From: an uncultured candidate division Zixibacteria bacterium
GTDB taxonomy: Bacteria; Zixibacteria; MSB-5A5; RBG-16-43-9
DNA length: 64,000 bases
Direction of reading: 5' to 3'
Assembly: GCA_963713865.1 (NCBI GenBank)
Contig: OY970208.1
Coordinates: forward strand, 1,952,001 to 2,016,000
A program made the translations under genes and the position numbers. Shown piece by piece: positions 12,233 through 28,039 of this stretch (the first letter of the stretch is position 1; each line of letters begins with the position of its first letter). The notes under the pieces were generated by a model. That model saw only the letters and a program-made list of their open reading frames with translations. It was not told the DNA's origin and did not search any database.

Positions 12233-13069
12233 TCAATGAGATATATTTTCTACTTTAGCCAGCCTCAAAAAAACCTCGGACTTGTAAAATTCATCTTTCA
12301 GCAGTGAAAGATAGTATGGGGTTTTATCTTTTTCCAACCCGAGAACATCCCAGCAATCGTCATCCAAACTAAAGCTGCAGGTAGTCTCTTGGTCTGTTTC
12401 TAGAAGACAGCTGAGATAGTCCGCTAGATGGACTATTATGACTGCTTCTTTATTGGAGTTAGCTTTCATTGGCTGATGATGAAATCGTATCACTTGATAA
12501 AATTCTGCAGGAAGATCAAAATTAGATACAAATTCTGCTCCAATCTGGGTATGGTCGACTTCTTTCAGGGATGAGCTATTTTCTAAAATAGTGTTCTTCT
12601 CAGTACTACTCTGGTTTTCTTCGGGAAGGTGAAGATAGGAAAAGATAACCAGTTTACCCAGATCATGCATAAGTCCGAGTGTGAAAAGGATATCTAATTT
12701 CAAGGGTTTATTAGGATAAAGATACCGTCCTATAATTCTTGAAGCACAGGCACAGGTTAAAGAATGACGATATAGTTCCTCCTGATATTCCTGTTCTTCG
12801 GAAATTACATGTGCGGATAAGACTAATTTTATAGCCCTCTCTATTCCTAAAATAGGTAAAGCTTGTTTAACGCTGATCAGCTTTTCGGAATCTCCAAAAT
12901 ATGATAAATCAGCCAGCTTCAAAGCTTGAAATGATAAAGCCGGATCTTCGGAGATCAGAGAAACAATGTCATAAATGGAACTGTAAGGATCGGTTATCAA
13001 GTGAACAAGTTCCTGGAAAACAAGCTTGGGAGTGGGCAGATTATCACTTATTTTGCTAAACTGTATCAT
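12233..13069 (-). CDS. HDOD domain protein
   Basis: LPTP, DPALS, HSL, LGLMHDLGKL, DHTQIGA, IRFHHQP. Confidence 0.9.
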   Translation of the reverse strand: MIQFSKISDNLPTPKLVFQELVHLITDPYSSIYDIVSLISEDPALSFQALKLADLSYFGDSEKLISVKQALPILGIERAIKLVLSAHVISEEQEYQEELYRHSLTCACASRIIGRYLYPNKPLKLDILFTLGLMHDLGKLVIFSYLHLPEENQSSTEKNTILENSSSLKEVDHTQIGAEFVSNFDLPAEFYQVIRFHHQPMKANSNKEAVIIVHLADYLSCLLETDQETTCSFSLDDDCWDVLGLEKDKTPYYLSLLKDEFYKSEVFLRLAKVENISH

Positions 13070-13146
13070 AGTTCACTTTTCAAGCCAAAGTGATTTTTCC
13101 ATCTTATAATATTTTACTGGGGGGCTTAAAAGTAAAAAAAGGGGGA

Positions 13147-13584
13147 CTATATCAAGATATCTATGATCCTCTCAGCTACTTTAGAATAAACCTTTGCCCG
13201 GGAATAATAACCTTGAGCCAGCTTGATCTTTGCCTCTTTTATTTTCTCTTCACGAATATCTAAAGTCGAAGCTGGTGTTTTACCGGTATCGATATGGGTT
13301 AGGTTTGAGGGCATAAACCTTCTGGGGTTTTTTAGGTTATCGAAATTTCTGTTTTCAGTCTTTTGTTTGGAACAACTGAATTTCAGTTTATTTACATTGG
13401 TTAGATTATTTGCTTTATCCGTCTCATTGCGAATCTGATTGGTGTTGGATTTTGGCTGTAAGTCCCTGACATTTCTGGTCTTACGCTGATCGTCCTCTTT
13501 ACGGGATAAAGCTTTTGAGCTTGAAATATCCTTTCCTTTAACCGGGTTAATCTTAAAGTTCAGACCTATTTTGTGAGCCTTCAT
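13147..13584 (-). CDS. flgM: FlgM-like anti-sigma28 factor with long basic N-terminal extension
   Basis: C-terminal DIREEKIKEAKIKLAQGYY...KVAERII; preceded by a sigma28 promoter. Confidence 0.65.
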   Translation of the reverse strand: MKAHKIGLNFKINPVKGKDISSSKALSRKEDDQRKTRNVRDLQPKSNTNQIRNETDKANNLTNVNKLKFSCSKQKTENRNFDNLKNPRRFMPSNLTHIDTGKTPASTLDIREEKIKEAKIKLAQGYYSRAKVYSKVAERIIDILI

Positions 13585-13605
13585 TTTCTTTTACCTCTAT
13601 TATAA

Positions 13606-13632
13606 TTATCGTCTCTGAACTTTAAAACTTAA
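13606..13632 (-). promoter_or_regulatory. sigma28 (FliA) promoter
   Basis: TTAAGTTT-N11-GACGATAA versus consensus TAAAGTTT-N11-GCCGATAA. Confidence 0.75.
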
Positions 13633-13706
13633 ATTTAATTTTATCTACGAAAAAATACGTAATACCATACGTCTCTACAGCTTGAGGATATATCCCTTCT
13701 TTTTTC

Positions 13707-14171
13707 TTAAGAAGGTTTAAATTTATTATTTTGCCTTCTACCTTCAGACCGGCTGAAAATAAAATGTTGAATTTTGTATCCTGTGTCCTTAAGCACAACC
13801 TGTTTTCCTAATTTCTTTTTCAGATTGATTACGATGGGAGCCAGTAGATTCACATGACAGTCTTTCATATCAGGAGGAAAGGTGACTATTACAAAAACTT
13901 TCTCGCTTTTCGAGTCAATTGCCTTTATATCCTCGAGCTCATCTGGATTTATGTGTGGTTTATAATCCTGAAATAAAAAGGAAGAGTCGACCAGAACAAA
14001 AGCTAAGTCAGGTTTCTCCACAGACTGCAGCCATATAAAAGGCTCATCCTCTTTCTGTCTCAGAAAAATAAATTTCTTTTCAGCTGGGAACCCGTAAATT
14101 CCCTTGCGGAAATGGTAAACTTCGCTGGAGGAGAAAGAAACTTTTCCAAACCGTGAAGTTGTAATCTCCAT
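13707..14171 (-). CDS. fliW: FliW, CsrA antagonist
   Basis: TSRFG, GIYGF, WLQS..PDLAF, VNLLAPIVIN, GKQVVL. Confidence 0.93.
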   Translation of the reverse strand: MEITTSRFGKVSFSSSEVYHFRKGIYGFPAEKKFIFLRQKEDEPFIWLQSVEKPDLAFVLVDSSFLFQDYKPHINPDELEDIKAIDSKSEKVFVIVTFPPDMKDCHVNLLAPIVINLKKKLGKQVVLKDTGYKIQHFIFSRSEGRRQNNKFKPS

Positions 14172-14485
14172 TTGCCCCCCTTTTTAAAATCATTATTTAT
14201 GGGGGCTAATTCTCCTCAAAGTAAACAAAGCTGGTATCTACTACTTCTGAAGAAAAAGGAGATCTAAGATTTGGATCCTTATTTGTCTTAGAGCATGATT
14301 TTTCTTTTTCCCTCTTGAACAGGGAATCAGCTTTCTTATGAGTTTGAAGATTAATTTTATTTTGTTTTTTGAAGATCATATTATTTTAAACTGAAATTTT
14401 TCTTTAAAGGTTTAAATAAGAAATAATTCTCTTTATATTGAACTATCGTAAATCGAAATGACCGGATGGAAAGAATAAGAAAAGT

Positions 14486-14755
14486 TTACTCCGGTTCATC
14501 CAGCTTTTTCCTGGGCTTCTCTTTTAATTTCTCTCTAACCACTTTAGCCATCTGGGTTACTTCCTCTTTGCCTACCTGGGCCGCTTTCTTGTTCTCTTCT
14601 TGTATCTTAAAATAGACCTCCTCCCGGTGAACAACCACCTTCTGAGGTGCTATAACTCCCAATCTTACTTGCCTTCCATGGATACCTAAGACTGTTATCT
14701 TGATGTCGTCACCAATAGTAATACTCTCTCCTAATTTTCGGGTAAGAATTAACAT
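14486..14755 (-). CDS. csrA: Carbon storage regulator CsrA with C-terminal extension
   Basis: [18 protein letters not shown]...[15 protein letters not shown]. Confidence 0.96.
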
Positions 14756-14788: not shown

Positions 14789-15100
14789 TTAACCCAAACG
14801 GGGAAAAAAGACGGAAGAAAAGTTCTTGATCTCTTGTTTGAGATGAATAGCTTCTTCACATATAAGCCGCTTTTGAATCAAATTTATAAGCTCTTTATCC
14901 TTATCTCCGTTTATAAAAATATTACCGTTTAACCTTATCTTGGTAAAAGCAGTATTTTTTGTGTCAGGGGTTAATTTAAGATCCTCTGCTACGGAGAGCT
15001 TCTCACTTTTTTCGATTGAGCTGTGGGGCAAAGCTCCCCTTGCTTTTAAAAGAGAATTAATTTTTTTAAGCCCTCTAATCCCTGAGAGAATATCCGACAT
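14789..15100 (-). CDS. Hypothetical protein in the flgK/flgL slot, possible relic
   Basis: 103-aa ORF between flgN and csrA; N-terminus only vaguely FlgK-like. Confidence 0.45.
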   Translation of the reverse strand: MSDILSGIRGLKKINSLLKARGALPHSSIEKSEKLSVAEDLKLTPDTKNTAFTKIRLNGNIFINGDKDKELINLIQKRLICEEAIHLKQEIKNFSSVFFPRLG

Positions 15101-15121: not shown

Positions 15122-15619
15122 TTATCCTGCTTTATTTAAGACCAGAGAAGGTTTAACCTTACCTGGATTATTCGAAGGTTCTTTCAAATAAGAGGTTGGG
15201 GAGTCATCCATCAAAAAAATTATATCGCGGTCGATATATCCCATTGACTCTTTTATCAGCTCTTCGTTTTTATCCCTTTGTGCTTCAACCTTTCGATGCA
15301 ATTCCAGTAAAGTCTTCTGGAGCTCCTCCAGTTTGGAAGAATAAGAGCTATCTAACAACTGGATCAATTTGGAAAGGGAGGTTCTTTCCTGATTGAAATT
15401 GACACCAGCCGAAAGCCAGGCCGTCATCTCCATCCTCTCTTTTTCTAACTGCTTGGCTCGAAGGATAGCCTGCTCCTGTTTATGAATGGATTCCTGCAGT
15501 TGATCAAAACGGTTGTTTATCAAACACTCCTCTTCTTCGGTTAGAAGCCACAGAAAATTTTCTAAAGAATCCACCTCTTTTTGAATTAGCTCAATCAAGC
15601 TAATAACATCTTTTTCCAA
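15122..15619 (-). CDS. flgN: FlgN-family flagellar chaperone
   Basis: Helical L..LI..E...L..LL.EE...L...LEKER...N..LI pattern; GGAGG SD with TTG start; synteny. Confidence 0.75.
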   Translation of the reverse strand: MEKDVISLIELIQKEVDSLENFLWLLTEEEECLINNRFDQLQESIHKQEQAILRAKQLEKERMEMTAWLSAGVNFNQERTSLSKLIQLLDSSYSSKLEELQKTLLELHRKVEAQRDKNEELIKESMGYIDRDIIFLMDDSPTSYLKEPSNNPGKVKPSLVLNKAG

Positions 15620-15653: not shown

Positions 15654-15680
15654 TAATCGGCAGATCTATCCAAGAGTTTA
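15654..15680 (-). promoter_or_regulatory. sigma28 promoter of flgN
   Basis: TAAACTCT-N11-GCCGATTA. Confidence 0.75.
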
Positions 15681-15818
15681 ACCTTCTGATACTATATAGA
15701 CTGTTTCAGATTTAAACTGGCGATACTCTTGCTCAGGCTCTGCAGATTTAAGACCATAAGGGAGGAGCAAAGCTACGAGAATAATTAATATTATCATGAC
15801 AAACATCGATCTGGACAT
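15678..15818 (-). CDS. 46-aa small protein with signal peptide or TM helix (not in the ORF track)
   Basis: GAGGAGGG SD; MSRSMFVMIILIILVALLLPYGLKSAEPEQEYRQFKSETVYIVSEG. Confidence 0.65.
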   Translation of the reverse strand: MSRSMFVMIILIILVALLLPYGLKSAEPEQEYRQFKSETVYIVSEG

Positions 15819-15848
15819 AACCCTCCTCATTAAATCTATTTATTTTTT

Positions 15849-15864
15849 AGCAATTTATATGCCC
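15849..15864 (-). promoter_or_regulatory. sigma54 promoter
   Basis: GGGCATATAAATTGCT (GG-N10-GC). Confidence 0.7.
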
Positions 15865-16040: not shown

Positions 16041-16496
16041 TCAAACCAACTTATTATCGATAGAGATTGACTTGAGCCTTTTCATAATCAAAAGGATTCT
16101 TTGACTTTCTCCCAATATCCTCTCCAGATATTCTTCGATCTTCTCCTCAATCACCTTATTTCTCTGGAACTCTATTTCTCCATATTGATTGATAGAGTAA
16201 ACCCCACCCACTTCCATTCTCACTAACTTTATAAGTTTAGTTATTTCAGTAGTAGCCTTAGAGGCCTGATTAACCAAATCCAGTACGTCTTCTGTAATCT
16301 TGGCTGGTAGATAGTTTTTTGCCCGGGCAGTAGCTGAGGCTAAGTTTAAAGCTACTTCCTTAACCTGTTCCGTGAAATTCTCCATAGAGTTAAGAACCTC
16401 TTCTATTTCAACTAAAGAGCTTCCCTCCTTTTCTGCTGATCCGTTCTCGGATACCTTCTCTGCAGAGAAAGAACCTTCTTTATTTTTTTCGTTCAT
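16041..16496 (-). CDS. Soluble protein resembling a degenerate MCP signalling domain
   Basis: EQVKEVALNLASATARAK...EDVLDLVNQASKATTEI aligns by eye to EQTNLLALNAAIEAARAG...EVRKLA..S..AT.EI. Confidence 0.55.
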   Translation of the reverse strand: MNEKNKEGSFSAEKVSENGSAEKEGSSLVEIEEVLNSMENFTEQVKEVALNLASATARAKNYLPAKITEDVLDLVNQASKATTEITKLIKLVRMEVGGVYSINQYGEIEFQRNKVIEEKIEEYLERILGESQRILLIMKRLKSISIDNKLV

Positions 16497-16855
16497 CTCA
16501 TACCTCTTAGCAAATCCCGAATCTTTTCTTTGAGCTCATCCAGGTTAGAGGACTTAACCAGGTATGCATCTGCTAACCAAGTTTGAAAATTATTCTTATA
16601 AGTTGAATAAGCTGAATTCAAAATCACCGGCAGGTTTTTATTCTGTCTCTTTAACAAGGATAAAGTTTCCAAACCATTTTCTTCTCCGTTAAGTTTTATA
16701 TCCAGAATAACTAAATTTATCTTTTCTTTGTCAGTTATCTCTAAGGCTTGAGTAACATCCCGGGCTAACTTAACCTCATACCCTTCATCCGCCAGCTCTT
16801 TTTGATAAAGGTCCAGAATATGCTCTTCATCATCAACTATGAGGATGCTTTTCAT
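16493..16855 (-). CDS. Single-domain response regulator
   Basis: ILIVDDE, ILDIKL, NSAY, YLVKS. Confidence 0.92.
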   Translation of the reverse strand: MKSILIVDDEEHILDLYQKELADEGYEVKLARDVTQALEITDKEKINLVILDIKLNGEENGLETLSLLKRQNKNLPVILNSAYSTYKNNFQTWLADAYLVKSSNLDELKEKIRDLLRGMR

Positions 16856-18596
16856 CTTGGCCTCCTTTATTAAATAATTTTATCTCTAGATAGAATCTTT
16901 CTTTATCCTCGGAATGGTATTTCAATGTTCCGCCTAAGTTCTCGATCAGGGCTGATGCCATAGCCAAACTTGAGCTTTTTGCCTCTTCCGCGATTAAGTT
17001 TGGAGACAAGAGGCTCAGAGAGAGAATAATCTCATCTTTAAAAAGACGAGTGGCAATATTGAGAGAACCACCGGAACCAGCGTTGCAGAGCATATTTTTC
17101 AGGAGATTGACTAACGAAGAATTCAGCCATGCCGGATTCAAAAAAAGATTGGGAATACCTGGCTGTAAGTTTTTAACCAGATAGATCCTTTTCTCTCTGA
17201 ATTCCTCTTTAAGTGTCTCTAGCGTCTGCTCTATAACCTGGTTAAGATTTAATTCCTTGGTTTTGTTTTTCGAATTATGGACATAATCCAGGAAACTGGT
17301 AAGCAAACTCTCCATTCTATCGATCTCTGAGACTATTATCTCCAGATACTTATAATTTGCATCTTGTGGGGTGATATTCTTTAAAATCGAACGAGCAAAT
17401 CCACCGATGATAGTCATTGGATTCCTTAGCTCATGAGCTACCTCTAACGTTATCTCCTCTATCGCCTGTGATCTCTCCATCCTTATCATTCTCTGGCTAC
17501 TCTCGGCTATCTTACGATTAGCTTCCTCCAGTTCCACCAGTTTCTTCTCCAGTCTCAGATAAAGTCTGGACCTCTCTATGGCGCTACCGGCATGATGAGC
17601 AAAGATTTGCAGGAGTTTTAAATCTTCCGCTTTTATCTCTTTACCGGTTATGAAATTATCTGCCAGGATTAAACCCTCTACCTTATCCACGGAGATTAAA
17701 GGAGCCAATGCTACCCTTCGAGTACCCAGTAACTCGAAAAGCTGTGAGATGTCTGAAGCCGAGCAGTTTTCCTCATTCAGGTATCGAGCTTGTTTATCTG
17801 AAACTGACTGAATCAGAGGATTTCCCTGCTCCTTCATCGATATCCTAATCTTTTGAACTATCTGATTTACCTCAATATCTTTCTGTTCTAAAGCAGAGCG
17901 ATAAGATTTGAGGATCTCCTCTAAGGATTGGTTTTGCTGGGAAAGATTTTTCCAGATTCTAAAAGCCTCATCCGGGTTAGATGGGCCTATAGCCATCTTA
18001 CCTTCAAGAAAGGTTTCTTTGTCATCTAAAAGCAGAAGAAAAGCTCGGTTGAATCCCAGGCCTTGACCGGCAGTAACGGCGATTAAGATGATATCCAGGA
18101 TCTCGTTTAAATTCAGAGTACTTCCTAAAACTTTCTCCACCCCGTCGATAATGGAAAGCTCATAGATGTTCTGTTTTAAACTCTCCTCTAACTTAACCTT
18201 GTTTGACTCATCCTCAACAAAACCGATTAGCCCGGCGTAGCTCCCATCCTTTTCCTTCAAAGGTGTTACTCGTAAAGAGAGGAAAGCTTCCTTTCCCCAG
18301 ATACTTCTATACTTGACCCTTTCTACTGCGAAAGGTTTCCCCTGTTCTAAAGTTTCCTTGAATTTTTTATCTATTCCCACAGCTCTTATGTTCTCTAACT
18401 CCAAAACATTTAAACCTACAGAATCTTCCGGTTTACTGCCGCCTAAGATCTTGGGGAAAAAATTATTGACGTATCTAACCTTCCCCTCCTGGTCACAGAT
18501 AAAAATTCCTATGCTGAGTTCCTGAAAGATATCCCTAAACTGTTTTATCAAGAGATCTAAATTACTAATTTTCTCAGTGGAAAGTTGTATTTCCAT
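16833..18596 (-). CDS. PAS-GAF-HisKA protein with degenerate ATPase domain
   Basis: PAS, GAF (GLGFNRAFLLL), H-box AHELRNP; no DxGxG or GxGLG boxes. Confidence 0.8.
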   Translation of the reverse strand: MEIQLSTEKISNLDLLIKQFRDIFQELSIGIFICDQEGKVRYVNNFFPKILGGSKPEDSVGLNVLELENIRAVGIDKKFKETLEQGKPFAVERVKYRSIWGKEAFLSLRVTPLKEKDGSYAGLIGFVEDESNKVKLEESLKQNIYELSIIDGVEKVLGSTLNLNEILDIILIAVTAGQGLGFNRAFLLLLDDKETFLEGKMAIGPSNPDEAFRIWKNLSQQNQSLEEILKSYRSALEQKDIEVNQIVQKIRISMKEQGNPLIQSVSDKQARYLNEENCSASDISQLFELLGTRRVALAPLISVDKVEGLILADNFITGKEIKAEDLKLLQIFAHHAGSAIERSRLYLRLEKKLVELEEANRKIAESSQRMIRMERSQAIEEITLEVAHELRNPMTIIGGFARSILKNITPQDANYKYLEIIVSEIDRMESLLTSFLDYVHNSKNKTKELNLNQVIEQTLETLKEEFREKRIYLVKNLQPGIPNLFLNPAWLNSSLVNLLKNMLCNAGSGGSLNIATRLFKDEIILSLSLLSPNLIAEEAKSSSLAMASALIENLGGTLKYHSEDKERFYLEIKLFNKGGQDEKHPHS

Positions 18597-18599
18597 TCT

Positions 18600-19073
18600 T
18601 TACTCGGTAAATGTTTTTACCCCTCTTGGTTCTTTCGCTTTATTAGAATATTCTAAAAGACTTTTTTTAAGTTTTGCTTCGAAGCTTCCAGTTTTTTCAG
18701 GGAAAAGCCCGCTTAAGGCTTCAGCTTTAATCTTCTCCTCGGAGTAAAGTTCAACTCCCACATAGAAATCATGCTCTTCAGATTCCTCCACTTTTTTTAC
18801 CTTTCCTAAAACTCCTTCTAACAGACCCAACCTTTTAAATTTAATGGAGAGATTAATGAAAGAACCCTCTTTCAAAGGATTATCTGTTAAAAGCAGTATC
18901 CCCTGCTCATTAAAGGTGAGCATTTCACCCCTGCCTTCTTTTTCAGCTTCGTATCCTGGCAGTAAACAAGTTTTGAAATTGATAGGCTCTTCTAACTCAA
19001 GTTCTACCACTTTGCCTTTCTTCCGCTCTTCTTCTGATCTTTTACTTTTTTCTAAAGTCGTATTTACTTCCAT
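18600..19073 (-). CDS. PilZ-like domain protein with degenerate motifs
   Basis: Beta-barrel pattern G.MLTFNEQGILL...L.EG..I...GKV...VGVE. Confidence 0.65.
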   Translation of the reverse strand: MEVNTTLEKSKRSEEERKKGKVVELELEEPINFKTCLLPGYEAEKEGRGEMLTFNEQGILLLTDNPLKEGSFINLSIKFKRLGLLEGVLGKVKKVEESEEHDFYVGVELYSEEKIKAEALSGLFPEKTGSFEAKLKKSLLEYSNKAKEPRGVKTFTE

Positions 19074-19188
19074 AATTACTCCTTTTTTGTCTTTTTTAGA
19101 TCTCCATATTTCTTCTTTCCCAAACGCTTTTAAAGAGAACCTTAAGCTATATTTGTCATATCTTTTTATTAGTATCCCGGAGATAGTT

Positions 19189-19947
19189 TTAAATGATAGG
19201 TAGCCGTAGCAACAAGGTATTTCCTTTACCCGGACTTCTTCTTATTTCCAGATCACCTTTATGTTCCTTCAATATCAAGTAACTATTTAAAATCCCAAAA
19301 GTTGAATTATTCCCGATCCGCAGAGCAGCGTAATCTTCTACTCTTCTTCGTATTTCTTCAGGTAATTCCTCCCCCTGGTCATTAAATTCCACCTTCAAGT
19401 ACTCATCTTCTTTTCTTAAACTTATCTCCAGTTTCCCGCCCCAGCTAATCCTTTGTTTAGCATTAAGTGTTAAGTAAAAAAACAACTCTTTGAGTTGTGA
19501 AGGATTTCCCTTAACCTTGGGTAGATTCTCTGGTAAATTTAAATTTAGTTCTATTTTTTTATCCTTAAGGCTGGCTTTGATCAAGGAAAGAATTGAGCCA
19601 ACCAGATAGTTTATATCAACATCGGTTTTTAGTTTATTATCTTCCGATTTCGACCGGGTCAGGTCAGTTAAGCTATCTATTAACTCCGCAATCCGTTGAG
19701 CTCCTTTCTCGATAGTTTTTAAATCCTCCATTGATTTGGTTGGGCTTTGTTCTTTGGCTATTCTCATCATAAATATCTGGGACTTTCCCAGGATGATCTG
19801 CAAAGGATTATTTATCTCATGAGCTACTCCACCCAGGATCTCACCCAGGCAAGCTAATCTTTCAATCTCCAGGGATCTTTGTCTAGATGACTCCGTTATC
19901 TCTTTTGTTTCAGGCTTGTTTTTTTTATCAATTGAAGTCGAAACCAT
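19189..19947 (-). CDS. Sensorless cytoplasmic histidine kinase-like protein
   Basis: GVAHEINNPL H-box and N-box; G1 reads DQGEE, F and G2 boxes degenerate. Confidence 0.8.
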   Translation of the reverse strand: MVSTSIDKKNKPETKEITESSRQRSLEIERLACLGEILGGVAHEINNPLQIILGKSQIFMMRIAKEQSPTKSMEDLKTIEKGAQRIAELIDSLTDLTRSKSEDNKLKTDVDINYLVGSILSLIKASLKDKKIELNLNLPENLPKVKGNPSQLKELFFYLTLNAKQRISWGGKLEISLRKEDEYLKVEFNDQGEELPEEIRRRVEDYAALRIGNNSTFGILNSYLILKEHKGDLEIRRSPGKGNTLLLRLPII

Positions 19948-20192: not shown

Positions 20193-20947
20193 AGGGCAAA
20201 ATTTTCTTTTATCATGTTTCTTAATTTCATCACCGCTTTGGTATGAATCTGGGAAACTCTGGATTCTGATATCTCCATAACTTCCCCTATCTCTTTGAGG
20301 GTCAATTCCTCATAGTAATACAGAGCTATAACCAGTCTCTCCTGTTCTGAAAGATGCTTTATCGCCGAGACCAGAAAAGCTTTAAGCTCCTTTTTCTCCA
20401 GATCATTCAGGATATTTTCTCGGGCCGTGGCTTCGATCGTCTCTATCCTGGGAATCTGCCGGTTATCCTCCTCTTTGTAGACCAGATCATCTAAAGAGAG
20501 CACGATGGAGGAGGATAGATCACCTCTGGCCGAATGCAGCTCCTTGACCGGCATTTTCAAAAATTTCGCCAGCTCTCTATCCGTGGGTATCCGTCCTAAT
20601 TTATTTTCCAGCTTGGTCAAAGCTTTGTCGATCTCGCGCGATTTCGCTCGCGTAGATCGAGGTACCCAGTCCAAAGACCTCAGCTCATCTAAGATGGCGC
20701 CACGGATTCGCGGAACGGCGTAGGTCTCGAACTTTACTCCGCGGTCGGGATCAAAATTGGAAAATGCCTCCACCAGTCCGATAACCCCGGTGCTGATCAG
20801 GTCCTGCAACTCCACCGATTTGGGAAAACCGATCGCCATTCTTCCGGCTACGCTTTTGACTAAAGGCAGATACTCGGACAGAAGTTTTTCCCTTTTTTCC
20901 GGATCTTTACTTTTTAAGTAAATGCCCCAATCCTTTTCAATGGTCAT
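20189..20947 (-). CDS. fliA: RNA polymerase sigma factor FliA/WhiG (sigma28)
   Basis: RIRGAILDELRSLDWVPRS, LYYYEELTLKEIG.V..ISESRVSQIH; ATG 20947 after AGGGGG. Confidence 0.96.
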   Translation of the reverse strand: MTIEKDWGIYLKSKDPEKREKLLSEYLPLVKSVAGRMAIGFPKSVELQDLISTGVIGLVEAFSNFDPDRGVKFETYAVPRIRGAILDELRSLDWVPRSTRAKSREIDKALTKLENKLGRIPTDRELAKFLKMPVKELHSARGDLSSSIVLSLDDLVYKEEDNRQIPRIETIEATARENILNDLEKKELKAFLVSAIKHLSEQERLVIALYYYEELTLKEIGEVMEISESRVSQIHTKAVMKLRNMIKENFAL

Positions 20948-21145
20948 AACTTTACCCCCTTGTGCCCCTGTCAACCTTTTGGGAAAGCTGACTCAAAGCA
21001 CTAAGTATTATTATCGTCTGTTTCATTCTATTTTATCACACTTTTTCTAATTTTAATTCACCCTTACAAGGGATTGCTGGTACTGTTTTGTTTTTATAAT
21101 CCTTAGCAAATATTTTCATTTAAGATTTTTCAGAATTTCAGTTAT

Positions 21146-21311
21146 TTAGTTATTTATGTTTAATAGGAGTTTTTCTATGATTATTCCAGAAACCAGGAAA
21201 GAAAAAGCCAGAATTATAAACCCTATTCCCACCAATAATTTTGAAAGAGATGGCTGAGTAAAATTTGAAATTTAAACTTAATGGATTATATCTCGGTTCC
21301 ATATTTCTCAT
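21146..21311 (-). other. Probable small single-pass membrane protein split by a 1-nt frameshift
   Basis: Frame A MRNMEPRYNPLSL; +1 frame SNFTQPSLSKLLVGIGFIILAFSFLVSGIIIEKLLLNINN-stop. Confidence 0.4.
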
Positions 21312-21328
21312 TTTGTAGAAAAGAGTTG

Positions 21329-21344
21329 AGCAAACCTCGTGCCT
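21329..21344 (-). promoter_or_regulatory. sigma54 promoter
   Basis: AGGCACGAGGTTTGCT (GG-N10-GC). Confidence 0.7.
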
Positions 21345-21674
21345 GAGAGGTATGTTGACTGACAATGTGTAGATAAGTTCCAGTCAAATCAGGGATTAGC
21401 TTTCATAAGAGCTGAAGAGACTGAAGTAAAATTATTGTTGAATTTGGAAATTATTTCCCCCCGTAGGGGACAACCTTTCCTGTGCAGAAAAAGTACAGTT
21501 TTTGATTGATAGAAGAGATGAGTCAGACCTATTCGTATACCCACCTTGCTCCCAGGGCGGGTATAACTCAGATGTTTAACAGTATTTTATTATTGACAGA
21601 AGCCCGTTTTTAACCACATATTAATCTTAATATAAATTATTAAGTTGCTAGTAAAATGGGCTTACCTTTAGTTG

Positions 21675-21773
21675 ATATTTTGAGGGAGTGAAACGACCGA
21701 ATCCGCCTAGGCGGATGTCGAATCTGACCTTGAGGTAGATTCTTCGTCCGCCTTCGGCGGACTCAGAATGACA
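21675..21773. repeat. Degenerate TGTCATTCTGA-type palindromic repeat with two GC mini-hairpins
   Basis: gattcttc-gtccgccttcggcggac-tcagaatgaca; same family at 39467-39657 and 41066-41100. Confidence 0.75.
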
Positions 21774-22125
21774 GTTGGTCAAGTTAATGCAATTTAATAG
21801 TACCTCCTTGCCCTCAAGTCAATGAAACGGCATGCAGGAGTGGAGCAATTTAGTTTTAATCCTCGTTCACCTGACCAATAAATGTATATATTCAAAAAGT
21901 TTACTGGTGAAATCGATTAGACTTTGATGCATTCAGGGAAGGAAAAGAAGAAGAGCTATGGTGATTGACATTTTCTATTAATCTCTTTATGAAATTATGC
22001 TGGCTGAGAGAATGAAGCTCCATTTCATTCTCCCAGCCATTTTCCCCCTCTCCGCGTCTTTGATTTGAGGTTTTATCCTCAAACCTTGTGTGCCATAACT
22101 TCGGTTTAGTTCAATCATTCTCTTT

Positions 22126-22142
22126 CGCAATTTATGTGCCAA
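22126..22142 (-). promoter_or_regulatory. Near-consensus sigma54 promoter with no long ORF downstream
   Basis: TTGGCACATAAATTGCG. Confidence 0.85.
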
Positions 22143-22377
22143 CCTCACAAAATCAGATGCTTACTTTGTTATCTCTCTATTATTCAAGCAATTAATCTTC
22201 TTATAGATTTCTTTAGTCTTTTCTGTCAGCAGACTCATTTCGAAAATAATTCCTGTTTTTATGTAAATATTTCCTAAAAAACTTTCCAGACCAGCAACCT
22301 TGAAAACGCAGAGTATATTCTTATAAAATAATTTAACTTTAAGATTAATTTTAACCTATACAGAAAGGTATATCAGC

Positions 22378-22412
22378 AAAAAAATTTCCCACTTTAGCCA
22401 AAGTGGGAAATT
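22378..22412 (-). terminator. Intrinsic terminator after the protease gene
   Basis: AATTTCCCACTTT-GGCT-AAAGTGGGAAATT plus T-run on the minus strand. Confidence 0.7.
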
Positions 22413-22441
22413 AGGTGTCTTTGTATAACGTGAGAGCCACC

Positions 22442-23311
22442 TCATTTCTTGATACTTTGTGATTTTATTTTCTGTTTAATTAAGTCTACTAATTCCCAGA
22501 TATAGTAAGAGGGGTGTGCAAGGCATAATTCATTCCAAGTATGTCCCATAGCGACAAGTCCGACGACGAGCCACGCTTGGTTCGAACCGGGTAGCAGTGC
22601 GAATACCGGACCCCCGCTATCCCCTGGTCGGGATGTAATATCGAGGATAATCCATTCCGATGTTATTGGCTCCGTACATTCGCAGTTAGCACGTTGTTTT
22701 GTAACGTTAAGGGTGAGCTTATCGCTGGGGAATATTGCTATATTTCCAAATCTACTGATGTGGAATTGCGGTTCTTGGTCGGTAGCAAAGGAAAAGCCAA
22801 TTATTTGAACCGGTGTTCCGTCTCTTATGTCTAACCTCTTGATATCTTCTCTCTTGGCAACCATATCCATTTTTATACCATAAATCCATGGGTCATAGTT
22901 GGCGGGATTGACTATAACGGTGTCACCGAGTGGTACAGCACCCACGATTACAATGACTAAGTCCACATTGGAGTCTGGATGTTCAGCGAATAGCTTAGAG
23001 CCTTTCCAGCGCAAGTATAGCGTGGCTTTTTCGTTGGTGGCTACTACCTTATTGTCATCTGAGATCTTGTTCCTTCGAACAAATACGCTGTCAAAGTATT
23101 GGTGAGTTTTGGGTGATTGAACCATATGCTTGTTTGTAACAAGGAAAAAACCTAATAAAGAATCCCTTACTAAAAAGCCCGTCCCTAATCCCTGCTCTGG
23201 GGTTTCAATTCTAAGTATCGAGCGCTTATTCAGCTCGGGGATTGATTGTGCTAAGGTCGTCGATAAACCCATTAGAAAGAAAATGACGATAGAAAGAATG
23301 ATGTATCGCAT
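22442..23311 (-). CDS. Secreted trypsin-like (S1) serine protease
   Basis: Signal peptide; GTGF, TNKH, VDL, PGDSGGPV triad motifs. Confidence 0.88.
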   Translation of the reverse strand: MRYIILSIVIFFLMGLSTTLAQSIPELNKRSILRIETPEQGLGTGFLVRDSLLGFFLVTNKHMVQSPKTHQYFDSVFVRRNKISDDNKVVATNEKATLYLRWKGSKLFAEHPDSNVDLVIVIVGAVPLGDTVIVNPANYDPWIYGIKMDMVAKREDIKRLDIRDGTPVQIIGFSFATDQEPQFHISRFGNIAIFPSDKLTLNVTKQRANCECTEPITSEWIILDITSRPGDSGGPVFALLPGSNQAWLVVGLVAMGHTWNELCLAHPSYYIWELVDLIKQKIKSQSIKK

Positions 23312-23504
23312 AAGTAAGCCTCCAATCTGTTTATAAGTTTCTTATGACAAGAATCTATGATAAGTGCGGAATGTTGTCAAGAAAAAATTTTAAATTTGAA
23401 TAAGGTGGGAATTTCAAGCCAGTTTTGACAAAATTTTCACCTTCTGCTAAGGTGATAAAACTTTAACAGGTGGTGAAAAGTGAACCTTAGAAAAGCCCAA
23501 AACT

Positions 23505-23627
23505 CGCGTAGCAGTCCCGCTCTTAGCGGGATTAGACCTCTCTACGAGGAGCGAAGCCCGGCGTAGCCGCCGTAAAGCTTTATCGGCTGCCGAGCCCTGA
23601 TCCCGCCAACGGCGGGACGGCTACGCG
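23505..23627. repeat. REP-like GTAGC...GCTAC composite palindrome
   Basis: cgcgtagcagtcccgctcttagcggga...tcccgccaacggcgggacggctacgcg. Confidence 0.65.
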
Positions 23628-23634
23628 TGTATTT

Positions 23635-24024: not shown

Positions 24025-25407
24025 CTACTCACTACTGTCTACTTGTTTATTATCTTCTTTCAGCCCGTATTCCTGCAGTTTATTCCTAAGGGTGCGGGAG
24101 GAAATCCCCAAAACCTCTGCTGCTTTGGTTTTGTTTTTGCCATAGATTTCCAGGGTTTTAAGGATTAAGGCTTTCTCCATATCAGCGATAGTGCATCCTA
24201 CCTTTAATCCTGAATCGTCATATTCTGCTTTTTTCAAAAACAGCTCCAGAGGAAAATCCGATGGCATAAGGATTTTGTTTTTAGTGGTAACCACTGCCCT
24301 TTCGATATAGTTTTCCAGCTCCCTTACGTTCCCGGGCCAGTGATATTCAAGGAAAAGCTGATAAACCCTTTCTGAAATCCCCTGGGCGTTTTTCTTGTTC
24401 TCCTGATTATATTTCTGTAAAAAATGCTCAGCCAAAATAGGTATGTCCTCTTTTCTTTCCCGCAGGGGAGCTAAATGAATCGGTATAACATTCAAACGAA
24501 AGAAAAGGTCTTCTCTGAACTTCCCTTGCTTTATCTGTTCATCTAAATTTTTATTGGAGGTAGAGATAATCCTCACATCCACCTGTATAGAATACCCTGA
24601 TCCCACCCTTTCAAATTCTCTTTCCTGCAAAACCCTTAAAAGCTTAGCCTGTAGCCCTGGCGTTATTTCGCTTATCTCATCTAAAAGCAAAGTCCCCCCA
24701 TCTGCCATCTCAAACCTGCCTCTGGTCTGGCGGATTGCGCCGGTAAAAGCACCTTTTTCATGACCGAAAAGCTCGGATTCTACCAATCCTTCTGGCAGAG
24801 CGGCACAATTTATCTTGATAAAGGGATCTTCTTTTCTGGAGCTGTTATAGTGAATTGCCTTGGCGATAAGCTCTTTGCCAGTTCCGGATTCACCGCTAAG
24901 CAAAACCGAGGAGCGGCTGTCCGCAATCATATCCACCATCTCAAAGACCTTCTGCATCTGGGGAGATTTTCCGATTATGTTTTGGAACCTGTATTTACCA
25001 ACTACCTCAGTTCTCAACATCCGGTTCTCGATCAAAAGCTTTTTATACTCAAAAGCTTTTTTAACTACCAGCTCGATCTCATCTGCAGAGAATGGCTTCA
25101 TAATATAGTCGAAAGCACCTAATTTCATCGCCTCTACTGCATTCTCCACTGTTCCGAAAGCAGTCATCATAATGATTTTAGTGTCCGGACAGCTGTCTTT
25201 AGCCGCTTTCAGAAGCTCCATCCCGTTTAATTTTGGCATCCTTATATCAGAGACAACTACATCATATTCTTTCTGCTTCAATTTATCCAGAGCCTCATCT
25301 CCGCTGGAAGCTAATTCCACTAAATAATCTGACCGGCTAAGGGTCTCATTTAAAAAATCCTTGGTCAGATTATCATCATCCACCACTAAGACTCTCTTTT
25401 CTAACAA
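24025..25407 (-). CDS. sigma54-dependent response regulator, FleR/FlgR-like NtrC family
   Basis: [27 protein letters not shown], Fis HTH; coupled to a FleS-like kinase. Confidence 0.92.
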   Translation of the reverse strand: MLEKRVLVVDDDNLTKDFLNETLSRSDYLVELASSGDEALDKLKQKEYDVVVSDIRMPKLNGMELLKAAKDSCPDTKIIMMTAFGTVENAVEAMKLGAFDYIMKPFSADEIELVVKKAFEYKKLLIENRMLRTEVVGKYRFQNIIGKSPQMQKVFEMVDMIADSRSSVLLSGESGTGKELIAKAIHYNSSRKEDPFIKINCAALPEGLVESELFGHEKGAFTGAIRQTRGRFEMADGGTLLLDEISEITPGLQAKLLRVLQEREFERVGSGYSIQVDVRIISTSNKNLDEQIKQGKFREDLFFRLNVIPIHLAPLRERKEDIPILAEHFLQKYNQENKKNAQGISERVYQLFLEYHWPGNVRELENYIERAVVTTKNKILMPSDFPLELFLKKAEYDDSGLKVGCTIADMEKALILKTLEIYGKNKTKAAEVLGISSRTLRNKLQEYGLKEDNKQVDSSE

Positions 25408-25518: not shown

Positions 25519-26796
25519 TTATCCGTTCTTAGGAAACAATACCGTTACCGTAGTCCCTTTCCCTAACTGGCTATCTATCTCTATTTCTCCTTTAAGTGCC
25601 TGCACTATCTTTTTTACCGTTGAAAGCCCCAGGCCAGTGCCTTTTTCTTTGGTGGTGAAAAATGGAGTGAAAAGCTTATTCTTTATCTCCTCAGTCATCC
25701 CGATGCCATTATCCTTAATCTTCAAGCTAACCATCTGTCCAGCAGACAGACCTGGAATTTTCCCCTCTGCATACATCGACTCAATACCTGCAAATATCTG
25801 GATTAACCCTCCTTCTGGCAATGCCTGGGAGGCATTATATAGAAGATTTAAAACTATCTGTTTGAACTTCTCACTATCCAGGAGACAGTTAACTCTTGTA
25901 TTGGTATAGAGCCGTTCAATTTTAATGTTATTTTTCCCCCTGGTAAGATCCATCTCAAAAAAGCTTACCACCTCATCTAAAAACCTGGCAAAATCTATGG
26001 GTCTTAAATCTAATTTTATGCTCCGGGTATAATCCAGGAGATTCATCACGATTCGATTTAAAATCTCCACTCCCTCCATAATTTTCTTTGCATATTTCCT
26101 TCTGGGATCATGTTCCTCGATATCGCGATAGAGTAAATCCGCAAAGCCTAAAATCCCATTTAAAGGATTCTTGACCTCATGGGCAACTGTAGCCGCCATC
26201 TCGCCTAAGGCGGCTAAAGTTCTTACCCTGGCTATTTCATCTTCCAGTTTTTTAATCTTGGAAAGATCAAAAAATACTTCCACCATACCTAAAAGGTTAT
26301 CCTCACCATCCTTCAAAAGAGAAGTTGAATAACCCAGGGGGATTTTGGTCTCAAATTTAGTAATGATCTCTTTCTCTTCATTCAAATGAGAGTTACCTGA
26401 TCTCATCGTATAAATTGGAGTAGATTGAAGAGCCACCCCTTTACCCATAACCTCTAAATATGGTCGATTTAAAACCTCTTCTGCTTTATATCCGGTGATC
26501 TCCTCTGCCGCTCGATTAAAAAGAGTTATCTTCTCCTCTAAATTTACCACTAATACTCCGGAAGTCAGGCTTTCCAAAATATTATTCAGGTAATTGGTAA
26601 CTTTTTCTTTTTCAACTAAACTTTCCCTGAGCTTGAGATTGGTCTGCTCTAATTCCAGGTTTAAATTTTCAAATTTCTCCTCTAAATCCTTGTAAGCCTG
26701 GTGAAGTTTCTGGATGATCTTGTTGAAAGAGGTATAGGAGTCAGCAAAAGCTCCTAACTCTTCCGGGGTGATTTTTCCTTTTTCTTCTTCTGCCAT
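25519..26796 (-). CDS. Cytoplasmic PAS histidine kinase, FleS/FlgS-like
   Basis: N-terminal AF...FN....L..AY..LE coiled coil, PAS, AHEVKNP, intact DNGIG, F and GTGLGL boxes. Confidence 0.88.
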   Translation of the reverse strand: MAEEEKGKITPEELGAFADSYTSFNKIIQKLHQAYKDLEEKFENLNLELEQTNLKLRESLVEKEKVTNYLNNILESLTSGVLVVNLEEKITLFNRAAEEITGYKAEEVLNRPYLEVMGKGVALQSTPIYTMRSGNSHLNEEKEIITKFETKIPLGYSTSLLKDGEDNLLGMVEVFFDLSKIKKLEDEIARVRTLAALGEMAATVAHEVKNPLNGILGFADLLYRDIEEHDPRRKYAKKIMEGVEILNRIVMNLLDYTRSIKLDLRPIDFARFLDEVVSFFEMDLTRGKNNIKIERLYTNTRVNCLLDSEKFKQIVLNLLYNASQALPEGGLIQIFAGIESMYAEGKIPGLSAGQMVSLKIKDNGIGMTEEIKNKLFTPFFTTKEKGTGLGLSTVKKIVQALKGEIEIDSQLGKGTTVTVLFPKNG

Positions 26797-26907
26797 TTAT
26801 ATTTCTACCATAGATAAATACTTTTTAAAATATAAATAAATTATAAAGGATTGCAACAGAAATCTTTAATCTTTATACTGTTATTAATGTTTTCACCAAA
26901 AACCAAT

Positions 26908-27237
26908 TCAGCTTAAATCTTCAACTATCTTTTCCAACTCTTTTTCTTTCTCTTGTAATAGATTTGCTTTGTCTCCTAATTCCCGGTGTAATGTCTTGAG
27001 TTGCTCGATTATCTGAGGGGTAGGTTTTTGAGAATTTGAAGGATTGTAATTAGAAATACTGCCCGTTATCTTCTGAATCAGTTTTACACTTTTAAGTTTT
27101 TTATTTACCAGCAGGTTGATGAGGTCATCCTCTATCTCTGGGGATTGAAGAGATGAGAGGAGTTTATCGGTGAGAGTTAAAACCTTATCGTATTCTTTCA
27201 AGAGTTTGTGATAAGAATAGAGGAGATTGGCGGTCAT
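26908..27237 (-). CDS. Helical hypothetical protein, possibly FliT-like
   Basis: 109 aa, all helical, upstream of the FleS-like gene; assignment rests on context only. Confidence 0.4.
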   Translation of the reverse strand: MTANLLYSYHKLLKEYDKVLTLTDKLLSSLQSPEIEDDLINLLVNKKLKSVKLIQKITGSISNYNPSNSQKPTPQIIEQLKTLHRELGDKANLLQEKEKELEKIVEDLS

Positions 27238-27279
27238 ATTAAAAATTTTCTAGTAAATTGAAATAATTGAAGAATAACC

Positions 27280-27400
27280 TCAAAGCCTTTCTAAAAGCTC
27301 CCCTGTTTTAAGCTCGTATTCTTTATCGCTGATCAGTCCCTTCTCTTTTAATTCACCCGATTTTCTAATCTGCTCGATGATTACCGGGTCAACTGGTTTC
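27280..27400 (-). pseudogene. SHOCT-domain gene remnant
   Basis: PVDPVIIEQIRKSGEL / KEKGLISDKEYELKTGELLERL-stop split across two frames, no start. Confidence 0.6.
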
Positions 27401-27459
27401 TGTTCTCAGGAATCCCTAACCCACTGGTAATCGGGATAACCCCCGAGCCAGGATTGAAT

Positions 27460-27927
27460 TTAAAAGGTTCCAGATTTCAAATTTCCTTTCTGGTAATTTT
27501 TTAATTCTTCCTCCAAATCTTTGATCTTGCCCTTCAACTCACCGATTTCATATTTCAACTGGTGCTCCTTTGAGACCCTGTCGATTGAGGATCTGAGCTC
27601 GTTCAGTTTGAACGGCTTGATCACGTAATCGCAGGCACCGCTTCTCAAAGCCTCAACTGCACTCTCTATGGTTGGATAACCAGTCATAATTATAGGTAAT
27701 ATTTCTGGGATTATTTTTTTCAGCTCTTTTAAAGTTTGAATTCCATCCAGACCCGGCATCTTCAAATCTATCAGCGCTATCTGCACTGGGGTAGTTTTAG
27801 CTATCTCCAGGGCTTTTTCACCTGATTCAGCTAATAAAACTTCGAACCCTTGTTTGCCCAGGAATTCTGACAGAAGCTCTCTTACAAAAAGCTCATCATC
27901 CACCACTAAGATCTTTTCCTGAACCAT
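27460..27927 (-). CDS. Response regulator (REC plus coiled coil)
   Basis: [27 protein letters not shown]. Confidence 0.92.
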   Translation of the reverse strand: MVQEKILVVDDELFVRELLSEFLGKQGFEVLLAESGEKALEIAKTTPVQIALIDLKMPGLDGIQTLKELKKIIPEILPIIMTGYPTIESAVEALRSGACDYVIKPFKLNELRSSIDRVSKEHQLKYEIGELKGKIKDLEEELKNYQKGNLKSGTF

Positions 27928-28012
27928 CTATTCTCCTGATCTCTGTTGATAAACAATTTAAAATTTCTTCACCTTAAAAACAAGGGATTTCTTCGGATAT
28001 AACTCGTTAATC

Positions 28013-28039
28013 TTATCGGCATTTTGCCTTTTCTTATTA
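28013..28039 (-). promoter_or_regulatory. Probable sigma28 promoter of the response regulator
   Basis: TAATAAGA-N11-GCCGATAA; perfect -10, weak -35. Confidence 0.5.

Follow-up and report, generated by a model that had tools for sequence, protein, structure and literature searches.

Flagellar regulators retained after deletion of the flagellum in a candidate division Zixibacteria genome

A locus of flagellar control genes persists in the genome of an uncultured candidate division Zixibacteria bacterium from sediment, a genome from which every flagellum-building gene has been deleted. The locus occupies positions 12233 to 28039 of the window, the 64,000-nt stretch of contig OY970208.1 that we analyzed. 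It comprises a FleS-like kinase and a FleR-like activator, the sigma factor FliA, FlgN, CsrA, FliW, a FlgM-like protein, and an HDOD protein, together with signaling genes and small open reading frames (ORFs); all lie on the minus strand, and the control genes are intact (Table 1). A preliminary description of this DNA had listed most of these genes, the regulators as intact ORFs, and the ORF list and the Pfam and NCBIfam profile matches, from which gene identities were drawn, confirm it. The same description had remarked that the slots normally held by structural genes are empty and had proposed retention of the regulators after flagellar loss. The first point agrees with gene order in flagellated Zixibacteria, and the second is borne out by synteny, by scraps of sequence left at the deletion scar, and by ratios of nonsynonymous to synonymous substitution (dN/dS). 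We consider it likely that the regulatory half of the flagellar regulon outlived the flagellum, its cascade being kept for a wider regulon that predates the loss.

The window belongs to a single-contig genome of 2,723,046 bases with a marker-gene completeness of 94%, which we compared within a set of 41 genomes, itself included. Genomes named below are the window's own (G000), a congener (G001), representatives of genus g2 (G003), genus g3 (G004, G006, G007, and G008), and genus g4 (G005) of the same family, members of families f2 (G021) and f4 (G013), and a flagellated relative (G039). Six-frame profile searches for FlhA, Flagellin_N, and Flg_bb_rod, each of which is positive in four of the 14 named genomes that served as controls, found none of the three in the own one-contig genome (0/1 each). 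FliG_C and CheW were sought in five genomes, the own genome among them, and only flagellated G039 was positive. A tblastn search (E ≤ 1e-3) with 134 ORFs of Zixibacterial flagellar loci, opposite-strand ORFs among them, returned no ortholog of any structural gene. Matches were obtained for 37 of the 134, all of them kept regulators or weak paralog-level similarities, such as those obtained with FliI (31% identity) and with FlhF- and FlhG-like proteins (25%). Export proteins of the sister genera, used as queries, gave only a 34-amino-acid (aa) scrap within the scar and a match of 31% identity to an ATPase paralog. The preliminary description had allowed that structural genes might lie elsewhere in the genome; neither the profiles nor tblastn found any. 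The gene for sigma-54, rpoN, is present.

Gene order in relatives shows what the locus once contained. FlhA occurs in 12 of the 41 genomes: in 5 of 8 family genomes, all belonging to genera g2 and g3 and none to g4; in neither of two further genomes of the own genus; in 0 of 20 from family f2 and 0 of 4 from f4; and in 6 of 7 class-level genomes. Flagellin and rod proteins are missing from all nine own-family genomes (0/9), and flagellin is found in all five tested FlhA-positive genomes at order or class level. The full arrangement (stage 0) is seen in G039, where che genes are followed by genes for FleS-like and FleR-like proteins, MotA, MotB, (FlgB), and the rod protein FlgC, leading to FliF, FliG, FliH, and FliI. 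Further on come FlgN, FlgK, CsrA, FlgL, and FliW, then FliC and FliD, and later a FlgM candidate and an HDOD protein. An intermediate (stage 1) survives in G003, which is colinear with positions 604 to 38195 of the window and holds a 20-kb block precisely between fliA and the 68-aa ORF. This block encodes FlhA, FlhB, FliR, FliP, FliO, FliN, a short FliM-like protein, FliJ, FliI, and FliH, as well as a 450-aa FliF-FliG(N/M) fusion, a hydrolase, and znuABC; profile searches of G003 returned no FliG_C and no CheW. The export core spans L005:19239 to L006:13365 (G003:C3), and the four g3 genomes likewise keep it. Judged by its gene content, the bare core of g2 and g3 resembles a flagellum-derived machine that is either a relic or devoted to secretion only, and these genera may be informative on the long-standing proposal that gene loss can turn flagella into secretion-only machines.

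The window represents the next stage (stage 2), with 2.7 kb in place of the 20-kb block of G003. A stretch of 1.47 kb (20975 to 22441) contains no notable ORF, and within it sensitive blastn against G003 recovered four colinear scraps of the deleted block (Table 1). Their sites in G003 are the fliR/fliQ boundary, the inside of fliQ, a position downstream of fliP, and a position upstream of the fliM-like gene. Since the same four colinear scraps are found in G005, the block was lost by several deletions, which were probably shared by the own genus (g1) and g4. The rest of the scar (22442 to 23634) is taken up by a trypsin-like peptidase gene with G+C-rich hairpin repeats upstream of it, which is not at this place in G003, G005, or G001. 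The scar of G001 (L008:8152-10975) instead carries a 521-aa repeat protein and a retained outer-membrane barrel gene; the scar is still changing between congeners. The preliminary description had missed the peptidase, the 68-aa Cys-rich ORF, the ORFs at 15678 to 15818 and 14206 to 14379, and the scraps at 21286 to 22178. Another gap, between the FleS-like kinase and the 109-aa ORF, was considered as a further flagellar deletion and rejected, for G003 has at that place an 890-aa protein with a type IX secretion system (T9SS) tail and a dockerin protein.

Flagellar loss was thus stepwise and not one event, and the regulators-only state dates far back and is widespread in the order, spanning several families. 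Among the 29 FlhA-negative genomes of the 41, FliA exceeds its cutoff in 26 and FliW is present in 23. A locus of family f2, in G021, which has no FlhA, looks on sequence grounds like another stage of reduction. There (L058:8233-12315), csrA and fliW are separated by the gene of a 540-aa protein whose C-terminal end resembles FlgL/flagellin; the only Flagellin_IN match of this protein is below threshold, and a radical-SAM/SPASM gene follows.

Several genes of the locus can be placed by their relatives. The FleS-like kinase has a counterpart in G039 with 36% identity, directly ahead of the FleR ortholog and motAB-flgC-fliF. The FleR-like activator has a single clear ortholog, at 56 to 57% identity, in each of four flagellated genomes, with paralogs at 47% or below; the ortholog in G039 sits in the flagellar supercluster, immediately 5′ of motA-motB-flgC...fliF. 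An activator adjoined by a cytoplasmic PAS kinase is the architecture of flagellar sigma-54 two-component systems (FleS/FleR, FlgS/FlgR, FlbD). By NCBIfam, the activator falls under the cutoffs for FlgR (348.4 versus 750) and FlbD (385.4 versus 750), and its best row is AtoC (533.6 versus a cutoff of 714). FliA contains sigma-70 regions r2, r3, and r4 and is 85 to 98% identical within the family; its best NCBIfam row is the WhiG model, at 304 bits under a cutoff of 343. The conserved ATGAAACAGACGATAATAATA that lies upstream of fliA is out of frame and was discarded as a possible alternative start. The signaling genes at 16041 to 19947 come after fliA in flagellated and nonflagellated relatives alike. 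At the head of the locus, the REC-only regulator is 83% identical to a 215-aa REC-SHOCT protein of G003. Within window 27238 to 27927 (minus strand), the SHOCT-coding tail can still be recognized, severed from the REC gene by frame disruptions in the linker that are common to G000 and G001; the G003 protein is uninterrupted. The 109-aa ORF had been labeled FliT-like in the preliminary description. That label finds no footing in the profile searches: there was no FliT match and no family match in Pfam at E values up to 10 or in NCBIfam up to 0.1, and a language-model atlas gave a weak lead to FlgN-like clusters (score, 0.86).

The downstream half of the locus retains the regulators whose partners are gone. 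In G039, flgN directly precedes the gene for FlgK; the own genome has no Flg_bb_rod or Flagellin_N match that could represent the FlgN clients FlgK and FlgL, and tblastn with Zixibacterial FlgK and FlgL came back empty. The FlgK slot is filled by the 103-aa ORF, which is without a family match in Pfam or NCBIfam, falls into unnamed clusters of the atlas, and has no similarity to Zixibacterial FlgK. CsrA also exceeds the cutoff of NF002469 (100 bits versus 73). FliW, well above the Pfam cutoff, is below the NCBIfam equivalog cutoffs (at best 130.7 versus 223, and 127.4 versus 130), and an alignment of 11 sequences, 2 of them from flagellated genomes, has 13 invariant columns. The three-way switch of CsrA, FliW, and flagellin lacks one arm: CsrA adjoins FliW, and flagellin is absent from the genome and was found in 0/9 family genomes. 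The 57-aa ORF recurs between csrA and fliW in nine loci of several nonflagellated lineages (as judged from an alignment of nine homologs) and was not found in flagellated loci L056 and L057. A predicted complex of FliW with the 57-aa protein, each supplied as an alignment, scored 0.01 against a mark of 0.32, which speaks neither for nor against binding. The 103-, 57-, 46-, and 109-aa ORFs were all considered as remnants of axial proteins, and BLAST against FlgK, FlgL, flagellin, and the other ORFs of flagellated loci gave no similarity.

Profile and positional evidence places the 145-aa protein in the FlgM family, and it is probably an anti-sigma-28 factor. It misses the gathering score of Pfam FlgM (PF04316), at 15.7 bits (E = 0.018) versus a cutoff of 25; it is the top FlgM match in its genome, and the FlgM candidate of G039 itself reaches only 19.6 bits. 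Among 54 database homologs, 12 carry PF04316 and one is named an anti-sigma-28 factor by its source. A profile of the family searched against solved structures gave only chance-level rows (E of 0.1 or worse). G039 has the HDOD ortholog next after its FlgM candidate, as in the window; the HDOD protein of the window is 33% identical to that protein (E = 1e-47).

We asked which genes FliA might serve in a cell without a flagellum. Sigma factors of its family read promoters of the TAAA-N15-GCCGATAA type. The genome was scanned with the motif TAAAGTTT-N11-GCCGATAA, a consensus from E. coli and Bacillus. The scan gave 52 matches, compared with 7 to 25 in Markov shuffles. Intergenic sequence makes up 11.4% of the genome and received 25 of the 52 (binomial, 5e-11), and 17 matches have a same-strand gene start within 150 nt. 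Reversing the sequence gave 17 matches, 1 of them intergenic, and five permuted motifs gave 0 to 12 matches, with 0 to 2 intergenic. Behind these sites lie pilM-pilN-pilO-pilP-pilQ and a PilT-like ATPase gene with pilC and a PilS-like kinase; further genes encode a PAS-GAF hybrid kinase, a REC-GAF-HD_5 protein, hemerythrin, signal peptidase I, an outer-membrane barrel protein, tetratricopeptide repeat proteins, EIIA-2 of the phosphotransferase system (PTS), a Big_1 adhesin-like protein, an NtrC-type activator, and a cold-shock protein. Within the locus, the sigma-28-type promoter of flgN is shared with two g3 loci, G001, and G003, G005 having a degraded version, and that of the FlgM-like gene is nearly invariant in G001, G003, and one g3 locus.

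These candidate targets bear on the suggestion of the preliminary description that the cascade had been rewired to a nonmotility output. The elements before pilM and pilT are kept in G001, G003, G005, and G013, which brings the operons with a conserved motif to four. In flagellated G039 they are present as GCCGATAC and GCCGATAT, and five of five further flagellated genomes have a CGATA-type −10 with a T-rich −35 ahead of pilM, as judged by eye, so that the pilM element is seen in all six flagellated relatives inspected. Among the best in silico targets (pilMNOPQ, pilT-pilC, and signaling genes), pilM thus has this element in flagellated relatives too, which argues for retention of an older, wider regulon and not for new wiring. 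On paper, then, the link between sigma-28 and the pilus is older than flagellar loss. A cascade re-aimed after the loss, by recruitment of promoters and acquisition of a new FliW ligand and a new FlgM trigger, strikes us as rather unlikely. Such a change would fit the many sigma-28-type sites before nonmotility genes (those for the PAS-GAF kinase, REC-GAF-HD_5 protein, hemerythrin, signal peptidase, PTS EIIA-2, Big_1 adhesin, and NtrC-type activator), the 57-aa ORF, which is confined to loci without FlgL or flagellin except in G021 with its degenerate FlgL-like gene, and an orphan sigma-54 leader kept after the loss of its genes. However, pilM and pilT, the two targets that were compared across lineages, carry the element in flagellated relatives, which is inheritance and not recruitment. 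Most likely, FliA was kept since its regulon, as predicted from promoter motifs, was never limited to the flagellum and took in pilus and signaling operons as well as its own locus. Such a link before and after the loss would explain the survival of FliA.

Sigma-54 promoters were sought with the consensus TGGCAC-N5-TTGC. Strict sites number 15 genome-wide, compared with 3 to 6 in controls, and looser sites number 47, of which 27 are intergenic. Promoter-like sites precede the genes for a type IV pilin and for a pseudopilin, the latter near pilM (G000:C1:1838474-1838996 and 1858798-1859239), so on paper the two alternative sigma factors of the former flagellar hierarchy both extend to pilus genes. 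Of the promoters that the preliminary description had placed in the locus, the sigma-54 sites at 22126 to 22141 and 15849 to 15864 and the sigma-28-type sites of flgN and the FlgM-like gene all proved conserved. The second sigma-54 site it had placed between FleR and fliA, at about 22095, did not hold up: it has no TTGC element, falls within a conserved leader, and is no promoter. The GG and GC elements of the site at 22126 to 22141 are invariant in 8/8 family genomes, and GGCAT...TTGC at 15849 to 15864 is kept in 6/6 aligned family loci. The stop codon of the 46-aa ORF behind this second promoter overlaps the −35 of the flgN promoter. For this region (window 15678 to 15864, minus strand), there is also an invariant block, GAAAATAATTC.TAAA, some 150 nt upstream.

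The first of these sigma-54 promoters is followed by the conserved leader RNA, whose former downstream genes, those of the fliM operon, have been lost in four of the eight family genomes aligned. Its parts are hairpin 1 (22064 to 22083), a strong Shine-Dalgarno sequence with an ATG (22044 to 22053), and hairpin 2 (22002 to 22038), with GGA in the loop. RNAalifold predicts 27 pairs, of which 2 have compensatory changes, both in hairpin 1; hairpin 2 is too invariant to be tested in this way. The leader has no Rfam family match and a single copy in the genome, and in G003 it stops about 30 nt before the start of the fliM-like gene. A conserved peptide was considered as the reason for its conservation and set aside in favor of the RNA, since the tiny ORF within it has 17 aa in the window and 6 to 21 aa in relatives. 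The orphan leader may, speculatively, be a small RNA or a target of CsrA.

The following history would account for these observations. As in present-day class-level relatives, a single ancestral supercluster carried che, fleS-fleR, motAB, flgBC, fliE-J, fliM-R, flhBA(FG), fliA, and the signaling genes and then flgN-flgK-csrA-flgL-fliW, fliC-fliD, and flgM-HDOD. Comparison shows that the first losses were the axial proteins, flagellin, the FliG torque domain, the stator, and the chemotaxis genes, a stage surviving in g2 and g3; next, the export core was eroded by several deletions in the line to the own genus and g4. FliA would now drive some 17 to 25 promoters, including those of flgN-orf103-csrA-orf57-fliW, flgM-HDOD, pilMNOPQ, pilT-pilC, and two-component and GAF/HD-type genes, while sigma-54 would drive a pilin gene and act at both of its conserved promoters within the locus. 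FlgM would still restrain FliA, CsrA and FliW would still act posttranscriptionally on some mRNA, and the former inputs (export of FlgM, free flagellin) would have been replaced by others. The cascade thus probably times surface behavior, that is, type IV pili and signaling, instead of flagellar assembly, as far as its predicted targets indicate.

What those other inputs might be can be framed from the textbook circuits. FlgM leaves the cell through the export gate, and in the Hag-FliW-CsrA switch, FliW binds CsrA when flagellin is not available. Lacking an export gate, the cell would have no way to expel FlgM, and lacking flagellin, it should have FliW bound to CsrA permanently. With both inputs gone, either other inputs exist or both genes are drifting, and drift would fit their higher dN/dS. 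Put differently, conservation of FlgM and FliW across the order without their textbook inputs would mean that other inputs act on them or that the textbook view is incomplete. We tentatively raise the possibility, which we think has perhaps one chance in several, of a working circuit with changed sensors, in which a sigma-54 activator feeds sigma-28/FlgM and this in turn CsrA/FliW, FlgM is released in some other way, FliW is titrated by a new ligand (the 57-aa protein or a pilus component), and the leader serves as a small RNA or CsrA target. If so, type IV pilus assembly would be a checkpoint-controlled process built from flagellar parts.

Selection on the kept genes was gauged against a congener. 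By the Nei-Gojobori method, with window genes compared to those of congener G001 at dS of 0.13 to 1.0, dN/dS was 0.018 for CsrA, 0.030 for FliA, 0.057 for the FleR-like activator, and 0.066 for the 68-aa ORF. It was 0.101 for the 109-aa ORF, 0.105 for FlgN, 0.106 for the REC regulator, 0.115 for the FleS-like kinase, and 0.124 for the HDOD protein. FliW (0.280), the FlgM-like protein (0.299), and the 103-aa ORF (0.353) were highest. Other genes of the window range from 0.022 to 0.262, and nested spurious ORFs range from 1.4 to 3.6. These values show the kept regulators to be under purifying selection; FliW, the FlgM-like protein, and the 103-aa ORF, whose values match or slightly exceed the top of the range for real genes, may be less tightly constrained yet are not neutral. 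Neutral decay, which the preliminary description had named as a possible refutation, is therefore not what the range of 0.018 to 0.353 indicates, against values above 1 for spurious ORFs.

The same data bear on the possibility that decay is in progress, that is, that flagellar loss was recent and the regulators, now functionless, are intact only for lack of time. The raised dN/dS of FliW, the FlgM-like protein, and the 103-aa ORF (0.28 to 0.35), the split REC-SHOCT gene, a scar between fliA and the 68-aa ORF that varies even among congeners, and the absence of FliW from G002 and G005 would all suit it. Nevertheless, dN/dS of all kept genes is far below 1 over the whole dS range, which largely refutes this reading. 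In addition, FliA is 85 to 91% identical between this genus and others of the family, a distance at which synonymous sites have reached saturation, the same retention extends over three families (FliA and FliW in most FlhA-negative genomes, as counted above), and the promoters are conserved between genera. We judge ongoing decay to be improbable. A hidden, very divergent flagellum- or injectisome-like machine, elsewhere in the genome or missing from the assembly, could appeal to a completeness short of 100% and to the bare export core of the sister genera, but the one-contig 2.72-Mb genome, the empty FlhA, flagellin, rod, and FliG_C profiles, the scrap and the ATPase paralog as the only returns for sister-genus export proteins, two further genomes of the genus without FlhA, and a deletion scar exactly at the position of the G003 core make it very improbable indeed.

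Several observations weigh against retention of the cascade for a wider regulon, the explanation that we prefer. Loss of the SHOCT tail from the receiver protein is a sign of some erosion, as read from the sequence. FlgN is patchy, being found in 24 of 41 genomes and in none of genera g5 and g9, and is therefore dispensable in some lines; so is FliW, given the two genomes in which it was not seen. The highest dN/dS values (those of FliW, the FlgM-like protein, and the 103-aa ORF) could reflect relaxed constraint on parts without partners. The nonflagellated status of families f2 and f4 was assigned from FlhA, flagellin not having been searched for there. Every promoter is a motif match to a consensus from E. 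coli and Bacillus, and nearly every sigma-28-type promoter differs from GCCGATAA in a single position of the −10 (GTCGATAA, GACGATAA, GCCGATTA). Assignment of these promoters to FliA is an inference from the motif.

Table 1. Features of the regulator locus and its deletion scar in window coordinates, in order of transcription
Feature	Position	Strand	Basis or remarks
Sigma-28-type −10, GCCGATAA, upstream of REC regulator	28013-28020	-	−35 weak, below scan threshold; kept in G001 and G003
REC-only response regulator, 155 aa	27460-27927	-	Pfam Response_reg, 96.4 bits
109-aa ORF ("FliT-like" in the preliminary description)	26908-27237	-	Kept in G001 and G003
PAS-HisKA-HATPase sensor kinase, FleS-like by position	25519-26796	-	Pfam
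NtrC-type sigma-54 activator, REC-Sigma54_activat (AAA+)-HTH_8, FleR-like by position	24025-25407	-	Pfam
Cys-rich ORF, 68 aa	23635-23841	-	Directly downstream of activator; 90% identical to G003, 70% to G013 (f4); no Pfam match
Trypsin-like peptidase	22442-23311	-	Pfam Trypsin_2; cargo at deletion scar
Sigma-54 promoter, TGGCAC-N5-TTGC	22126-22141	-	No gene of at least 50 aa downstream
Conserved leader RNA, ~130 nt	21990-22125	-	Alignment of 8/8 family genomes; ~55-nt core nearly invariant
Scraps of deleted export block	21286-21348, 21445-21489, 21880-21958, 21992-22178		Sensitive blastn versus G003, colinear
fliA, sigma-28, FliA/WhiG family	20189-20974	-	TIGR02479, 278.8 bits versus cutoff of 189.6
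HisKA-HATPase kinase	19189-19947	-	Pfam
PilZ-like protein	18600-19073	-	Pfam, weak match
PAS-GAF-HisKA protein	16833-18596	-	Pfam
REC protein	16493-16855	-	Pfam
151-aa protein	16041-16496	-	Pfam, weak match to MCP-signal (methyl-accepting chemotaxis protein)
Sigma-54-like promoter, GGGCAT-N5-TTGC	15849-15864	-	Precedes 46-aa ORF
Small ORF, 46 aa, hydrophobic N-terminal stretch	15678-15818	-	Frame kept in G001, G003, G005, and two g3 loci
Sigma-28-type promoter of flgN, TAAACTCT-N11-GCCGATTA	15654-15680	-	Motif scan
flgN, chaperone family	15122-15619	-	Pfam FlgN (PF05130), 61.9 bits versus cutoff of 30.5
103-aa ORF in FlgK slot	14789-15100	-	Confined to this family
csrA, long C-terminal tail	14486-14755	-	Pfam CsrA (PF02599), 85.9 bits; TIGR00202, 93.2 versus 70.1
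57-aa ORF between csrA and fliW	14206-14379	-	Conserved ends MFFK... and ...DTSFVY-acidic
fliW	13707-14171	-	Pfam FliW (PF02623), 127.7 bits versus cutoff of 25
Sigma-28-type promoter of FlgM-like gene, TTAAGTTT-N11-GACGATAA	13606-13632	-	Motif scan
FlgM-like gene, 145 aa	13147-13584	-	Pfam FlgM, C-terminal part only
HDOD/HD protein, last gene of block	12233-13069	-	Pfam HDOD, 115.4 bits

Housekeeping genes flank the locus: those for threonyl-tRNA synthetase, the phenylalanyl-tRNA synthetase beta subunit, and RNase Y at one end and that for an S41 peptidase at the opposite end. A tRNA (11724 to 11797, Rfam; region of about 11720 to 11900, minus strand) is preceded by a partial copy of its own 5′ half, joined to a short G+C-rich hairpin, and the same hairpin recurs further upstream of it. 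Elsewhere in the window there are a second NtrC-type two-component pair (39659 to 43202) and an 883-aa multiheme cytochrome with a T9SS sorting tail that adjoins a 433-aa HTH transposase-like ORF (43440 to 47676, minus strand).

Related reuse of flagellar regulators is known. In Streptomyces, a sigma factor of the FliA/WhiG family, WhiG, and its dedicated anti-sigma factor, RsiG, serve a nonflagellar program. The anti-sigma factor here is of the FlgM family and not RsiG, and the only hint of cyclic di-GMP is the weak PilZ-like match nearby. A close case in the literature is Legionella longbeachae, in which flagellar biosynthesis genes are reported to be gone except for FliA, FleN, FleR/FleS, and FlgD, and the flanks are conserved (PMC2824747). 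Both organisms have structural genes deleted between conserved flanks, FliA and FleR/FleS kept, and type IV pilus genes present. Unlike the Zixibacteria genome, which has no CheW, L. longbeachae keeps FleN, FlgD, and a chemotaxis system by that same account, and the Zixibacteria locus additionally keeps the FlgM-like protein, FlgN, CsrA-FliW, and the HDOD protein. The Zixibacteria state also spans several families of an order, with intermediates surviving in sister genera.

Nonmotile Clostridioides difficile clade 5 keeps fliC, fliW, and csrA, and its FliW is reported to bind TcdR, a partner outside motility (PMC11898703). FliW and CsrA are thus kept without a flagellum in both cases and are functional in C. 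difficile; however, clade 5 retains flagellin, the classical FliW ligand, whereas the Zixibacteria genome has no flagellin-family gene (PMC11898703). A FliA-like sigma factor without flagella and tied to type IV pili is found in Synechocystis, where SigF, a sigma factor of group 3, recognizes the pilA1 promoter and regulates itself (PMC2532724). The evidence for SigF is experimental and concerns the pilin gene, whereas here the targets pilMNOPQ and pilT-pilC are predicted in silico and the pilin gene lies behind a sigma-54 site (PMC2532724). We found no title or abstract treating flagellar regulators in Zixibacteria or FliW/CsrA without flagellin; one paper names FliW and CsrA in a methods list only (PMC10746217).

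The series from full flagellum through bare export core, lacking rod, hook, filament, and torque domain, to regulators only is a natural one in which to see what flagellar regulators do apart from flagella. Relative to the known cases, what sets the Zixibacteria apart is the retention of FlgM, FlgN, FliW, and CsrA without any flagellin, the stability of this state across the order, and the survival of the intermediates in sister genera.

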